A DNA stretch of 64,000 nucleotides, taken from NCBI GenBank assembly GCA_965224085.1, contig CBDCYI010000005.1, forward strand, positions 1,760,001 through 1,824,000, given 5' to 3'. Source of the DNA: Candidatus Marinacidobacterales bacterium. GTDB lineage: Bacteria; Acidobacteriota; Vicinamibacteria; Marinacidobacterales; SMYC01. This document shows positions 1,347 through 6,183 of this stretch, one piece after another. How positions within the stretch are numbered: the stretch's first letter is position 1; each line of letters begins with the position of its first letter. A model generated the notes under the pieces. It saw nothing but the letters and a program-made list of their open reading frames with translations. It ran no database searches and was not told the origin of the DNA. The position numbers and the translations under genes are program-made.

Positions 1347-1511
1347 TGGAAGTACACGAAACGGCCAGGTCTTAGCTCCATCCAGCCGGCTACACTGTCC
1401 GAGTACGTCTTGAGCAAGTTCATTTTTTCCGTCGAGAGTCTCGAGCCCCTCGTTCTTCTGACGACGCTCGTCCTTATGGGGGTGGCCAAGGGCGGTGCGG
1501 GGTGGAAAAAG

Positions 1512-2844
1512 ATGTTCGGGCTCGGCAAGAAAGAAAAGAGCCCGGCTTCTGGTGCGGACCCTGCGCTCGCCGCGGGCGATTGGGAGCGGGCCGCCAAGAT
1601 ATTCGAAAAAGACGGACGTTATCGTGATGCGGCCAAGCTTTATCGAGGCAAGGGGCAGAACCACGAAGCAGCGCGTCTTCTCGTGCGCGCTGGAGCGCTT
1701 ACGGAAGCAGCGTCCATCTTCGAGCGGGTCGGACATTATCAAAAGGCTGCGGAGGTGTGCGCGCAGTCCGGGGACAACAAAAGAGCGGGCGAGAACTACC
1801 GGCACTACCTCGAAGACCGGTTCGGCACCCTCGCCCTCGCGCGCTCTCCGGCGGACCATGCGGAGTTCACGAAATATTGCCGGCTTGCCGGGCAAGCCTT
1901 CGAGCGCGCCGGACTTCTCGATCAAGCTGCGGAAGTGCTCGAGCGTGGCGAGCAGTGGGAGGATGCGGCTGCGCTGTTCCTCAAGCTCAATCGTCACGTG
2001 AAAGCCGCCGATCTCTATGAGCGTGCCGGAGCGGTGGACCACGCTGCCGACGCCTACGCGCAAGCGGGCGACCGTGTGCGCGCCGCGCAAATGCGAGGCG
2101 AGCATCTTTACAAGCAAGATCAGAAAAACGAGGCGGCGGTGCAGTTTCTCCTCGGTGGCGATCCGCTTCGAGCTGCCGAAGTCTACGAAGAAGCGGGAAA
2201 TTATCTCGACTCCGCACGCTGCTACGAGCATTGCGGCGCCCACCGTCAGGCCGCCGAGGCCTATGAGCGCGTGGAGCAATTCGGCCGCGCGGCGGAAATG
2301 TACGGACGGAGCCAGGACTATAAGAAAGCCGCGGCGCTCTACGAGAAGGCCGAAGACTGGGGCCAGGCGGCGCGGATGTTCGCCGAGTCAGGCGACTATT
2401 ATCGCGCCGCGAAGAACGCGCGCAAAGAGGGACTCACCGAGTTCGCCATCGACTGCCTCCAGAAGATCGAGACAACGAACCCCAATTATCAAGAATCCCT
2501 CGTCGAGCTCGGGCAGAGTTTCATGGAGCGGGATCTGCCGGGTGTCGCCGTGGAGAAGTTGAAGAAGGCGCTTCACGATCAGCCACTCGCGGCCAAGAAT
2601 CTCGACATCTATTACACGCTCGCGGTCGCTTCCGAGCAGATGGGTAGCTACGAAAAAGCTGTGGAGATCCTCAAGCAGATCGTCGCGGAAAACTACAGCT
2701 ATCGGGACGCCGTCGGGCGGCTCCAGGAGCTCCAGAAGAAGCCGGCGAAAGGGGCCACCGAGCCGTCACGCCATCAAGCCGCCAAAGAAGAGCTCGGTGG
2801 CAAGCGCTATGAGTTCATTGAGAAACTCGGCGCCGGCGGGATGG
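1512..2844 (+). pseudogene. N-terminal part of a TPR/helical-repeat Ser/Thr protein kinase, interrupted by IS110
   Basis: Many AAxxYExAG helical repeats, then RYEFIEKLGAGGM (kinase subdomain I), broken at 2844. Likely ATG at 1512. Confidence 0.9.
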
Positions 2845-2859
2845 ACTCCCCACGCCGGA

Positions 2860-4155
2860 TCAAGAGAAAACCTTCTTCGTAGGAATCATCGTCGATTCGC
2901 TTTTTGTTGTGGACGACCGCGAGGGGTCGTAAAGAGTTCTTTGTCGAAGCATCGCCATGGCGATGGGTAGAATGCGGTCCATGACGCCTCTGAGAGCTCT
3001 GGCATGGCTGTGGCCCGCGTCGCGAAGCCGATCGTAGTGCTTTTTAAAGTGTGGGTCGCGAAGCACGGCAGTGCTGGCCCAATGATGGAGAGCGTTATTG
3101 AGGGGCAAAGAGCGAGCTCTCCTCATCAGGATAGTTGGTCGCAACTGACCGCGCTTGCCGCTTTTTTTCGTGACGGGTGCGATGCCGCTGAGAGTCCTGA
3201 AGGCTTTGAGATTTCGTAGCCGAATGGGGTCGTGGGCATAGCAGAGCACGGAGGCGAGCACGTAAGCACCGACGCCGGGCAAAGAGGCAAGAATGGCAGC
3301 GTCGGAGCACTGCTTGTCGTTTAGTGCTTGCAAGCGCTTGAACCACTTCTCGAGATGCTGGTCGGAGGCACGACGATGTTGTCGAACGAGGAGCAACTGC
3401 TGAAGGAGCAGTTCGAGATGCTCAGAAGTAGCTTTGGTGGTTGCATGCGCGACTCGGAGTGGTTTTTGATTGAGGGTATCGAGGATCTGCTCGGGTTTTA
3501 CGCGTCGGATGCGGTGTTTTTTAACGAGCGTCTCGATGGTGTGGCGGCTAAGAGAGTTGGGGCTGGATTCGAAGAAGAGTTTTAGGAGCTCGCAGAAAAA
3601 CGCGTCGAGAGCCTTATTCTTTGGCGCGAGCGAGACGAGGTGAGGCCAACAGCGAGTAAGGAGTTCTCGGATCTGCGAGCTGAGGGCAACGTGGTTTTTG
3701 ACAAGTTGGTCGCGGGTGCTCAACAGCCCGCGCATAGCAAGGATCTCCGGAGGTGGAAGTTGCAAGCGCTGAAAGCGGTGACCGTCGGTTCTGAGCGAAT
3801 CGGCGAGAACGAAGGCGTCGCGCCGATCATCCTTGGCGCCGCTCATAGAATGCCGGTCGCGGAAACGGTCGACCTGCTTGGGATTGATGGAGAAAATGGC
3901 GATGGCGTTGTCAAGAAAGAGCTCGACGACGGCTCCATGAGGCTTTTCGATCGCCACTGCGATGCGCTCGGTGTCTTGCGTGGTCAGTTCCAGAAGCCAG
4001 CCGATCGTTTCTGAAAGTCCTTCGCGGCTATGAGGAAAGCCGCGCTCCCCCATAAATTGTCCCCTGGTATCGACCACGCTGGCCAAGTGAAGCCATTGGC
4101 CCAGGTCGACACCGACGAAGAAGTCGTAGTCGAGCTGATTCCTGGAAGAACTCAT
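2860..4155 (-). CDS. IS110-family DEDD recombinase (transposase)
   Basis: VGVDLG, VAIEK and KDDRRDA (DEDD residues), SLPGVG, GIAPVTKKSGK (catalytic Ser region). ATG at 4155. Confidence 0.95.
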   Translation of the reverse strand: MSSSRNQLDYDFFVGVDLGQWLHLASVVDTRGQFMGERGFPHSREGLSETIGWLLELTTQDTERIAVAIEKPHGAVVELFLDNAIAIFSINPKQVDRFRDRHSMSGAKDDRRDAFVLADSLRTDGHRFQRLQLPPPEILAMRGLLSTRDQLVKNHVALSSQIRELLTRCWPHLVSLAPKNKALDAFFCELLKLFFESSPNSLSRHTIETLVKKHRIRRVKPEQILDTLNQKPLRVAHATTKATSEHLELLLQQLLLVRQHRRASDQHLEKWFKRLQALNDKQCSDAAILASLPGVGAYVLASVLCYAHDPIRLRNLKAFRTLSGIAPVTKKSGKRGQLRPTILMRRARSLPLNNALHHWASTAVLRDPHFKKHYDRLRDAGHSHARALRGVMDRILPIAMAMLRQRTLYDPSRSSTTKSESTMIPTKKVFS

Positions 4156-4158
4156 TGC

Positions 4159-4313
4159 CGTCAGCGCATGTGATGTTTCATCGGCCCCTGTACCGGCGCT
4201 CGAAGCGCAACTCCCCATTGGATGTCCATCACAAGAAAATTGCCGGCACGCGTGTCCATACCGGGCGCTCGGAGCGCAGGGCGAAGTATGGCGTTGCCGG
4301 CAAGCTGCTGACG
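4159..4313 (-). ncRNA. Predicted bridge RNA (target-binding loop plus donor-binding loop)
   Basis: Closing stem 4159-4165/4307-4313. Target arm stem 4240-4248/4295-4303 with guides 4279-4287 and 4256-4262. Donor arm stem 4169-4175/4227-4233 with guides 4210-4217 (identical to end 2845-2852) and 4187-4193 (reverse complement of 5440-5446). Confidence 0.88.
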
Positions 4314-4350
4314 AAATCGAAAATAGTTCAAGCTCATCGTGAGATTTGCT

Positions 4351-4767
4351 CTACCACTGCAATCGAAGCTGGCGCGCGATGCCACCAGCTCGTGCTGGTT
4401 TTTTTCTCGGTTGTTTCGGGCGAAGCACGTCTGCGAGTTTTTCTCGAAGGTAGCGAACATAAGGCGGGTCTAGATATTCACTTCGCACTTCCTCGAGCAC
4501 AGGTGAAAAATAGCGAAGGGAGCGAATGGGTTGTAGTGGCTCCTCATGCTCTTGTAGCTCCCGACGAGCGCAACCCAGAAGTAGGGCGCACTCGAATTCG
4601 TATAACGGGACGCCCTGGCGGTAGAGTCGCGTCGCCATGAAGCGATCGTCGCGCCGTGGTCGCTCAGGTGTGTTCGGAATAGAAACATAGATATCCAAAA
4701 CCGCCCGGACATAATCGTTTTCTGTTAGAGCGTCGCTCGTGAGCGGTTTATCACTGAGCTTCGACAT
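4351..4767 (-). CDS. IS110 accessory helical protein (about 138 aa), function unknown
   Basis: GGAGG RBS before ATG 4767; overlaps the upstream ORF stop. Motifs YVRAVLDIY, QGVPL and PIRSLRYF. Confidence 0.75.
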   Translation of the reverse strand: MSKLSDKPLTSDALTENDYVRAVLDIYVSIPNTPERPRRDDRFMATRLYRQGVPLYEFECALLLGCARRELQEHEEPLQPIRSLRYFSPVLEEVRSEYLDPPYVRYLREKLADVLRPKQPRKKPARAGGIARQLRLQW

Positions 4768-5156
4768 CCATCCACCTCCCGCGTCCGCCGCAGATACAGC
4801 ATTTGGCATATCCGAAACTGTCAAGCTTCGTTTTCATTGAAAGAACCATCGAGCTCCGTGACCGGATCTGTTCTCTGATTCCTACATTGCCCGAGTTACC
4901 GACGTGAATGGAACCATGATCCGTTACTTTTTCTTGGTGTCGTCGATACTCACGTTGCCGGTCCGCACAATCTCGACTGTCCTTCGACACTTTCTCGATC
5001 TTTGCGGTTGTAGCCGCGACACTTTATTAGGCCGGCATGATAAGAGCACGCTTTACCGCAGTAGCAGTGTCCACGGTCACAGCTCTTGCAGATGTAGAAG
5101 GCCTCTGAACAGTTACGACAAAAACGCTGGTACACAACGACTGGTTTGGTGGCCAT
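4751..5156 (-). CDS. IS110 accessory Cys-rich Zn-finger protein, with a 1-nt frameshift near 4978
   Basis: CRNC..CKSCDRGHCYCGKAC in one frame, continuing as DRQREYRRHQEKVTDHGS...CCICG in the next frame. Confidence 0.72.
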
Positions 5157-5444
5157 TTGAGACTCAGCAAGCGCTGGACTATGGCCGCCCGTCTGTGAGA
5201 GGCTAGCTTCCACCTGTACTGGAGCGCCTCCTTCGGGGGGCCATCCAAACATCAGAGCCCCGGTCGTTTCTGGCGGCCGGGGCTCGCTATTGTTGCACAG
5301 CAGGCTCACCCTTATCTCGCCGGGGCGAGACGATCTGACTGCCTCGCGCCTACGGCGCGAGATGATGCCTTGTGCATACACATTTTGGTTCGACCTTCCG
5401 CGTAGCTCACGCTTTCGCTGTTCTGACGCTTCCGCAAGCGTACA

Positions 5445-6183
5445 GGGCGTCGTCTATCGCGCCAAAGACACGCGGCTCAATCGCATCGTGGCCTACAAGA
5501 TGCTCATGGAGCAGTTCATGGAGGTCAAAGAGGTCCGGGAGCGCTTCTTGCGCGAAGCACAATCGGCAGCGCAGCTCAATCATCCGAATATCGTCACGGT
5601 GTTCGACGTGGACGTCGACTCGGAGCAGAACCGGCTCTTCATCGCTATGGAGTTCGTCGCGGGTGAAAGCTATTTCGACATCCTTCAGCGTGAGACGAGA
5701 CTCTCGATCCAGCAGACCGTTCAGTTCATCGGAGGCGTTCTCAAAGCGCTCGCCCACGCGCATCGCCACGGCGTCCTCCACCGCGATATCAAGCCTTCGA
5801 ACGTGATGCTCTCGAAACAGCGCGTCGTCAAGATCATGGATTTCGGCCTCGCCAAGATACTTCGAGACGCGAAAGCGCAGGGCAGTGAGAAGGCGAGCGG
5901 GACGCCGCTCTACATGTCTCCAGAGCAGATTCTCGGCAAGGCACTCGACTTCCGCACGGATATCTACGCCTTTGGAGGGACCGTGTATCACCTCCTCGCG
6001 GGCGAGCCACCTTTCGTTGATGGCGAAGTGCTCTACCATCACGTGCACACACCCGCGCGCTCGCTGAAAGACTTGCGGCCGGACGTTCCGAAGGTGCTCT
6101 GCAGCATCGTTATGGCTTGTCTCAACAAGGAGCCCGCCGACCGGCCGACCTCCGACCAAATCCTGAAAATGTTGAAGAAGTAG
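5445..6183 (+). pseudogene. C-terminal part (catalytic domain) of the interrupted Ser/Thr kinase
   Basis: GVVYRAKD, VAYK, HRDIKPSN, DFGLAK, GTPLYMSPEQ. Confidence 0.93.

Follow-up and report, generated by a model that had tools for sequence, protein, structure and literature searches.

Within a 64,000-nucleotide stretch of a Candidatus Marinacidobacterales genome (hereafter the window, by which the whole stretch is meant), an insertion sequence (IS) of the IS110 family carries a structured leader RNA and two small genes ahead of its bridge RNA and recombinase. One of these genes encodes a Cys-rich, zinc-ribbon-like protein (ZnF) and the other a helical protein (Hel). The leader RNA, ZnF and Hel form a three-part cassette that stands at the head of transposition operons in insertion sequences of two unrelated kinds, IS110 and IS21. 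In the window, Hel, ZnF and a conserved leader motif (R1) stand in one operon with the transposition genes, and their homologues are found in IS21 loci. We postulate that the cassette is a portable unit of leader RNA and two proteins, which may bind nucleic acid and control or assist the operon that lies downstream, a reading that draws on sequence comparison and to which we assign a probability of roughly 0.45. The features of the element are as follows.

2845 to 5446, minus strand: whole IS110-family element; five full-length copies lose similarity at these exact bases, and joining the flanks mends a kinase reading frame
5154 to 5446, minus strand: left-end leader, non-coding and strongly structured (folding, identity, covariation); it opens with CC-TGTAC, the bridge RNA's right-donor site
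5161 to 5292, minus strand: R1, a conserved RNA motif of 132 nt that ends 7 nt upstream of the ZnF ATG (covariance model)
4751 to 5153, minus strand: ZnF, Cys-rich, zinc-ribbon-like open reading frame (ORF), its frame broken by one extra base at about 4976-4978 (ORFs, homologue alignment)
4351 to 4767, minus strand: Hel, helical ORF of 138 aa, a five-helix bundle (ORFs, alignment, predicted fold)
4169 to 4303, minus strand: bridge RNA core (guides, four helices, covariation)
2860 to 4155, minus strand: IS110-family DEDD/Ser recombinase, 431 aa from the ATG at 4155 (PF01548, E 5.7e-30; PF02371, E 2.9e-11)

All genes of this 2,602-bp element lie on the minus strand. Read from the left end (5446), a leader of about 290 nt is followed by the Cys-rich ORF (5153-4751) and the helical ORF (4767-4351), and then by a non-coding spacer of 195 nt, the recombinase (from its ATG at 4155 to 2860) and a right end of 15 nt. 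A preliminary description of the window had placed two accessory ORFs, co-oriented with the recombinase, between the left end and the bridge RNA, and this arrangement holds: both are present on the minus strand, and the bridge RNA (4303-4169) lies, as described, between Hel and the recombinase. That the two genes sit inside the mobile unit is borne out by the five full-length copies, which share both ends. The proposed overlapping pair with a strong ribosome-binding site was also recovered, as Hel starts at an ATG (4767) with a GGGAGG ribosome-binding site 7 nt upstream and overlaps the end of ZnF by 17 nt. The host genome (12 contigs, 6.87 Mb, searched for copies) contains four other full-length copies of about 85% identity to that of the window, which constitute a sister subfamily, as well as several truncated or rearranged copies, some of them 99.4-100% identical to the window copy.

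A cassette common to IS110 and IS21 elements

Textbook IS21 elements have two genes, which encode the IstA DDE transposase and the IstB AAA+ ATPase. A collection of 85 loci encoding Hel relatives (5 from genomes and 80 from metagenomes), gathered with two Hel peptide patterns, comprised 41 loci of the order ZnF-Hel-IS110 recombinase, 34 of the order istA-istB-Hel, and 10 that end too early to be assigned. ZnF was seen in 36 of the 41 IS110-type loci, the other five having no more than 281 nt of upstream sequence, and the frames are single and open throughout (36/36 for ZnF and 41/41 for Hel) at 37-90% identity to the query. Co-occurrence of both genes with this IS110 clade, for which the preliminary description had called, is therefore seen in every related locus with enough upstream sequence (36/36), and a one-off capture is ruled out. 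Of 401 genomes sampled from the phylum, 24 have the Hel domain, among them the window's genome and the unpublished G049 (one match, L115). At the 28 Hel loci of the 23 genomes other than the window's, istB and/or istA stood alongside in 25, and an IS110 recombinase in none (0/28).

The IS21-type order is leader-ZnF-istA-istB-Hel. ZnF, the first gene of many such operons, overlaps the start of istA in L017, L058, L068, L093-L096, L170 and L171, and Hel, most relatives of which are the last gene of an IS21-type operon, begins 4-7 nt past istB. The window element shares these two genes with the IS21 family, but it has neither istA nor istB. A four-gene IS21 element of 3,362 bp with TG...CA ends was delimited by BLAST comparison in genome G385, where its ten copies are 99.9-100% identical and lie in unrelated flanks, roughly half of the sites showing duplications of 6-7 bp; these features mark the IS21 form as a genuine insertion sequence. 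Five of the ten long family members that were fetched are ZnF-Hel fusions, in which the Cys-rich part precedes the helical domain, and IS21 forms of 250 aa have a winged-helix, HTH_36-like domain (a match under cut-off, E 0.0015) in the place of ZnF; both arrangements suggest that the two proteins work together.

Two lineages of IS110 recombinases carry the cassette. The window's 21 cassette-bearing relatives form one clade with 100% SH-aLRT support, and L070, L071 and L078, whose recombinases are 25% identical, form a second clade with 100% support amid cassette-less elements. The cassette was found in none of 27 IS110 loci from 12 other genomes with recombinases 25-43% identical to that of the window. 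In the Hel tree, which is short and poorly resolved, the two IS110 groups stand apart with IS21-type rows between them, and at least three changes between IS21 and IS110 contexts are required. The simplest reading of these sequence trees is that IS110 lineages would have acquired the cassette twice, although losses are possible and the root was not tested. The preliminary description had proposed a multi-gene bridge system. The extra genes are indeed conserved across the recombinase clade, but the bridge-specific part of that proposal did not stand: because the same pair occurs in IS21 elements (34 of the 85 loci) and the nearest IS110 relatives lack the cassette (0/27), the cassette is not specific to bridge recombination.

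Two side observations bear on how the cassette may move. In L064, L072, L076 and L077 the recombinases are 72-75% identical to that of the window and the bridge RNA is nearly identical, but ZnF and Hel are merely 37-39% identical and the leader is shorter and divergent, so that the left half seems to have been exchanged as a block. Separately, five of the 27 cassette-less IS110 relatives (L135, L145, L156, L157 and L158) have IS21 gene fragments at a distance of no more than 1.5 kb, among them, at L157, an opposite-strand homologue of ZnF. The cassette could have been picked up in surroundings of this kind.

The leader RNA and the two proteins

Folding of the window's leader gave a z-score of -3.86, and none of 200 shuffled sequences folded as well. 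Nucleotide identity of the leader over the clade is 72-90%. A covariance model of R1, built from the 3' 132 nt of the leader, matches the window at 5292-5161 and the IS110 relatives, lying 7-20 nt ahead of ZnF in IS110-type loci. Among 22 aligned sequences, 93.9% of cells are paired and 16 of 29 pairs are changed on both sides, values that were reached by 0 of 500 shuffles, and slid controls dropped to 30-51% paired. The same motif ends likewise 7-20 nt upstream of ZnF in the IS21-type loci L017, L058, L094, L095, L096 and L159 (E 1e-8 to 1e-5), which amounts to 6 of the 7 IS21-type loci having both ZnF and upstream sequence, and it is absent from all 6 IS21-type loci without ZnF. R1 is weak in the second IS110 group (E 0.002 in L078 and 0.008 in L071). 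Genome-wide searches returned 13 matches in G385 and 10 in G015, where they mark the IS21 copies, and none in G250 and G309, which have the winged-helix-Hel forms, or in G164. The likeness of the leaders was seen only by the covariance model, a BLAST search of the window leader against IS21 upstream regions giving nothing and an Rfam search over 2700-5600 giving nothing relevant; conserved unpaired parts of the leader are identical between IS21 and IS110 forms.

Some variation in the leader may be mentioned here. Several IS21 forms (L017:189-232 and relatives) have leader helix 1 followed by a run of U, which gives it the look of an intrinsic terminator. The window has CUGAUGUUUGG as the tail after this helix, and G385 is without the U run. 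The leader of the sister subfamily (L003:3838-4155, against window 5154-5446) contains a second copy of the CTCGCGCC...GGCGCGAG hairpin, carried by an insert of 30 nt.

Intact relatives of ZnF are 133-137 aa long, with six N-terminal Cys, a long Arg-rich helix of 45 residues and a C-terminal CxxCG; Cys clusters together with such a helix would suit the binding of nucleic acid. In the window, ZnF begins at the ATG at 5153 (MATKPVVVYQRFCRNCSEAFYICKSCDRGHCYCGKAC...), shifts frame at about 4976-4978 and terminates at 4751 (...KCCICGGRGRWMDVEAQ). Alignment with the intact homologues P0006-P0009 (...SVEGRRDYADRQREYRRRQ...) identifies the extra base, GGACAG[T]CGAGAT, and so agrees with the preliminary description, in which one base near 4978 had to be removed. 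The truncated product of 68 aa is identical in all three window-type copies that hold the site (L001, L002 and L009), and contigs from four of four sequencing runs (four studies, one run of which may be the source sample) span 4600-5265 with no gap and no differing letter. As the same base is present in the three copies and in the contigs of the four runs, it is real and no slip of assembly. Since the frameshift is common to all three of these near-identical copies (99.4-100%), full-length ZnF was dispensable in cis for their recent spread. In the sister subfamily, ZnF is intact (137 aa) in four of seven copies and broken or altered in three.

Hel has the conserved pattern PxRPRRDDR...ALLLGxxRR...PIRSLRYFxPVLEE, with invariant Arg residues that would likewise suit nucleic-acid binding, and 8 of its 10 copies in the host genome are whole. 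A 157-aa form with a TTG start was considered and set aside as an over-extension, the ATG at 4767 being preferred. Between the two subfamilies of the host genome, dN/dS is 0.30 for Hel and 0.24 for the recombinase. Hel is under purifying selection, and ZnF and Hel are real, conserved genes. A word-indexed search returned 72 relatives of Hel and 14 of ZnF, all of them unnamed, and the Hel profile matches 1,413 representative clusters of a 50% identity library at E <= 0.001. The Hel family is a large one without a name, a Pfam model or a solved relative.

The Hel domain also extends beyond insertion sequences, as it is present in two chromosomal proteins of Thermoanaerobaculia. These single-copy proteins of about 230 aa (L120:1460-2197 and L121:1432-2157), named hypothetical, adjoin birA/coaX; their N-terminal domain is homologous to Hel (hhalign 96.5%, E 9e-10, 82 columns) and is followed by a coiled-coil tail. 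Neither has a Pfam or NCBIfam match.

Searches of named families did not identify either protein. Pfam, NCBIfam and PHROGs scans of ZnF, Hel, the fusions and the IS21 forms gave only matches under cut-off (NinG, Rhodanese_C, RepB_primase_C, HTH_36 and PRK00420), and the window's own ZnF and Hel have no Pfam match at E <= 1. For ZnF, the likeness to lambda NinG is at the level of a motif only (hhalign of the N-terminus: probability 6.7%, E 0.0055, 40 columns); a PF05766 (NinG) match in P0121 is under cut-off at E 0.0092, and the nuclease domain was not seen. Sequence profiles found no solved chain in PDB for ZnF or Hel, Foldseek of Hel against PDB found nothing at E <= 0.001, and the ESM Atlas returned unnamed clusters only. 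A tblastn search of a plasmid collection with Hel and the 250-aa form gave no match. The best VIA-align score for Hel, Z 7.0, belongs to AAA+ lids and is within the stated noise for helical bundles. Prediction of a ZnF-Hel complex scored 0.00, which reads neither way. A test for a TniQ/TnsD-like selector gave no Pfam match for ZnF or Hel, and the ten G385 copies of the IS21 element lie in unrelated flanks.

The preliminary description had also noted a likeness of Hel to DnaD/DnaB_C domains, and this could not be upheld. A six-frame search of the host genome, with its 10 Hel copies, for PF07261 found none, the Bacillus and Lactococcus controls being detected, and when the Hel profile was compared by hhalign with the replisome organiser of phi11, a verified DnaB_2 protein (E 1.3e-10), the probability was 0.2%, at the limited sensitivity of a single-sequence template. 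The predicted fold of Hel scores Z 5.6 against the DnaD-like 2zc2 (root-mean-square deviation 3.1, 72 aligned), Z 5.3 against 2i5u (root-mean-square deviation 2.8, 66 aligned), both below the stated noise level, and Z 5.0 against the loader G39P. With the C-domain of DnaD and phage replisome organisers (PF07261), Hel shares a small size, a helical-bundle make-up and, in some cases, a position that follows a winged helix and adjoins a DnaC-like ATPase. Unlike DnaD, it has no hidden Markov model or profile match, and its fold likeness is at noise level.

Possible roles of the cassette

How might such a unit work? We postulate that ZnF and Hel would act jointly as a nucleic-acid-binding pair, in which binding may be provided by ZnF or, in some IS21 forms, by the winged-helix domain standing in its place, while Hel may provide a second conserved basic surface. 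The pair would target the leader RNA or left-end DNA of the element itself, and perhaps thereby set the output of the downstream operon, which is istAB in IS21 and the bridge RNA plus recombinase in the window. The cassette would then work regardless of the chemistry of the transposase, and would be no catalytic or directionality partner of the bridge recombinase. It is tempting to go further and to speculate that leader RNA, ZnF and Hel make up a ribonucleoprotein switch that is traded among insertion sequences, for example an RNA-bound attenuation or antitermination gate on the downstream transposition genes, passed from IS21-type elements to IS110 at least twice; we regard this more specific proposal as possible but doubtful. 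If it is true, there are natural bridge systems in which expression is gated by an inbuilt unit of protein and RNA placed before the bridge RNA.

Several observations weigh against a jointly acting, leader-bound cassette. The winged-helix-Hel IS21 forms carry neither ZnF nor R1, so Hel can work without ZnF and the leader, and its place at the far end of the IS21 operon is unlike what a simple leader-binding regulator needs. L068 has ZnF, yet no R1 match at E <= 1. The terminator look of leader helix 1 is restricted to some IS21 forms, and a promoter scan found no promoter, its one plus-strand site being not above chance. The structure model of ZnF is weak (pLDDT 52). The R1 alignment was fitted to its model and leans toward the model's structure, and the use of two peptide patterns biases the 85 loci toward the query within the 1,413 clusters.

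Other explanations were weighed against the same evidence. The cassette may be cargo with a role beyond transposition, such as counter-defence, addiction or a ribonucleoprotein of its own, that is kept for the benefit of the element or the host. The unit does move between IS families along with its own RNA, the Hel domain also occurs in the single-copy chromosomal proteins beside birA/coaX (hhalign 96.5%), and IS110 elements are reported to acquire cargo in the main text of Hu et al. (bioRxiv 10.64898/2026.08.14.744561). However, the overlap of ZnF with the istA start and the abutment of Hel on istB point to co-expression with the transposition machinery, and no enzymatic domain was found in the Pfam, NCBIfam and PHROGs scans, so that we consider a cargo role rather unlikely. 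That the ORFs are decaying hitch-hikers, functionless IS21 leftovers trapped in an IS110 element, is very improbable indeed: the window's ZnF is frameshifted and 3 of 7 sister copies have a broken or altered one, but the open frames of the IS110-type loci (36/36 and 41/41) span 37-90% identity, Hel has a dN/dS of 0.30, and invariant Cys, Arg and aromatic columns are retained.

Were ZnF and Hel instead cofactors of the bridge system, which bind the IS110 recombinase or the synaptic complex and set directionality, excision or integration, their co-transcription upstream of the bridge RNA and recombinase and their retention throughout the recombinase clade would fit well. The pair also serves IS21 elements with a DDE transposase and an AAA+ partner, however, and it is carried by two unrelated IS110 lineages while closer relatives are without it (0/27); together with the ZnF frameshift common to all three near-identical copies that hold the site, this makes the cofactor proposal improbable. 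We look with still more doubt upon a replication or repair helper, in which a DnaD-like or replisome-organiser-like Hel and a DNA-binding ZnF or winged helix would recruit replication or restart factors of the host to the intermediate of transposition. The winged-helix plus helical domain that follows the DnaC-like IstB resembles the architecture of phage replisome organisers, 2zc2 (Z 5.6), 2i5u (Z 5.3) and G39P (Z 5.0) appear in the fold list, and P0087 has a weak RepB_primase_C match (E 8e-4, under cut-off). Against these stand the absence of PF07261 from the genome, the lack of a Pfam match, the hhalign probability of 0.2%, and DnaD fold scores that lie beneath the noise for helical bundles and are exceeded by AAA+ lids (Z 7.0).

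The proposed portable cassette recalls other accessory units. TnpB with its omega-RNA is an accessory unit common to IS200/IS605 and IS607, and the cassette is likewise a protein-plus-RNA unit that serves elements with unrelated transposases, but it shows no nuclease domain and no guide-like variable segment. Bridge recombinases are usually treated as one-protein, one-RNA systems, and here a whole clade keeps two further proteins and a second structured RNA. That the cassette also serves IS21 suggests that bacterial transposition has a common level of control or assistance that has yet to be described. The cassette gives a handle on how a bridge RNA is made 1.1 kb inside a transcript, on how elements limit themselves, and on why accessory units move between transposase families.

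In the main text of Hu et al. (bioRxiv 10.64898/2026.08.14.744561), expanded IS110 loci with variable adaptive cargo (resistance, metal detoxification, plasmid DNA) are described. The window element is like these loci in exceeding the 1.5-kb model and in having extra genes between its ends. Unlike the cargo described there, its genes are a fixed cassette over the whole recombinase clade and are common to IS21. The words 'zinc' and 'IS21' are absent from that main text, and 'accessory' is absent from the text of Durrant et al. 2024 (PMC11208160). Full-text literature searches found no description of the cassette or of the four-gene 3.36-kb IS21 form. For all of these, supplements may list such elements.

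Recombinase, bridge RNA and insertion site

The recombinase scores 161.8 bits against the NCBI IS110 model NF033542 (cut-off 140). A longer form of 452 aa, from 4218, was rejected as over-extended because it would run across the donor-binding loop of the bridge RNA.

The bridge RNA begins 1,143 nt from the left end. Its target-binding loop consists of an LTG-like UUCGCCC (4285-4279), a hairpin (4277-4265) and an RTG-like GGUAUGG (4262-4256), and its donor-binding loop of an LDG-like UGGGGAGU (4217-4210), a hairpin (4208-4196) and an RDG-like GUACAGG (4193-4187), each internal loop being closed by a GCGCUYCGAGCGC hairpin. The core dinucleotide at both junctions (2843-2844 and 5445-5446) is CC on the minus strand and GG on the plus strand. 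In the target loop, UUCGCCC on the 5' side reads in the same sense as the left-end-adjacent flank plus core, and GGUAUGG on the 3' side is complementary to the core plus right-end-adjacent flank. In the donor loop, UGGGGAGU reads in the same sense as the tail of the right end, with the core not included in the LDG, and GUACAGG is the complement of CC-TGTAC, the start of the left end. Over 24 diverse sequences, the four helices have 98.3% of cells paired and 5 pairs changed on both sides, and the 195-nt spacer that contains the bridge RNA is 93.5% identical between the two subfamilies, compared with 85% for the whole element.

Guides and sites change together. Window-type copies have the guide GGTATGG and, in two of three, the site CCATACC, the window's own site being CCATCCC; the sister subfamily has the guide GGAATGG and, in three of its four full-length copies, the site CCATTCC; and in metagenome relatives whose RDG is GTATAGG the left end opens with CCTATAC (3/3). 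The guides covary with the flanks and with the element ends, which places the element in the bridge-RNA-guided IS110 subgroup. With 2,602 bp and three genes, the element departs from the compact IS110 layout, in which about 1.2-1.6 kb contain a single gene and a bridge RNA that lies within the non-coding left end.

In IS621 the target loop comes first and the donor loop second, and the 5' guides pair with the bottom strand and the 3' guides with the top strand, as given in the text of Durrant et al. 2024 (PMC11208160). On that description the window element is like IS621-type IS110 elements in its recombinase domains, the bridge RNA upstream of the recombinase, the order of the loops, the senses of the guides, and the core at both junctions. 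It is unlike IS621 in being 2.6 kb long with three genes, in having its bridge RNA 1.1 kb from the left end behind a structured RNA and two genes, in its core (CC, not CT), and in its target, which is a protein-coding motif of a gene family.

The element splits a TPR-Ser/Thr kinase gene within the codons of the glycine loop, leaving two parts.

1410 to 2844, plus strand: 5' part of the kinase gene, ending ...EKLGAGGM-G (ORF list, Pfam)
5447 to 6183, plus strand: 3' part of the kinase gene, beginning (G)VVYRAKDTRLNRIVAYK (Pkinase PF00069, E 4.8e-53)

The upstream ORF terminates ...YEFIEKLGAGGM and the downstream ORF picks up at (G)VVYRAKDTRLNRIVAYK. When base 2844 is joined to 5447, the codons read ATG-GGC-GTC and the kinase frame ...LGAGGM/G-VVYRAKD is recovered. 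More generally, the bridge RNA of this clade is programmed to the codons of the Ser/Thr-kinase glycine loop (GxGGMG/xVY; window 2827-2844 and 5447-5470). In a comparison of the flanks of the window copy, L003, L004, L007, L013 and 15 metagenome loci, the opposite-strand reading ...G(E/D/V)VY was found in three of the five full copies of this genome, in the right-end flank of L007, in L013, and in 14 of the 15 left-end flanks of the metagenome relatives. This is a natural example of an RNA guide whose target is a protein motif conserved within a multigene family.

Within the window-type subfamily, the window's copy is the only one complete end to end. L002 (C11:764560-766953) breaks within the leader and adjoins an inverted right-end fragment, and L009 (C9:747925-748786) retains only the left end to mid-Hel. 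At L007 (C4:1482103-1483633) only the bridge RNA and recombinase remain. A low-depth contig (3.7 against about 30-40; runs X1 and X3) fuses a glycine-loop sequence straight to 5445 onward, resembling an empty site; as its flank differs from the left flank of the window at two bases, it is more likely to be a paralogue or a strain variant than a product of excision.

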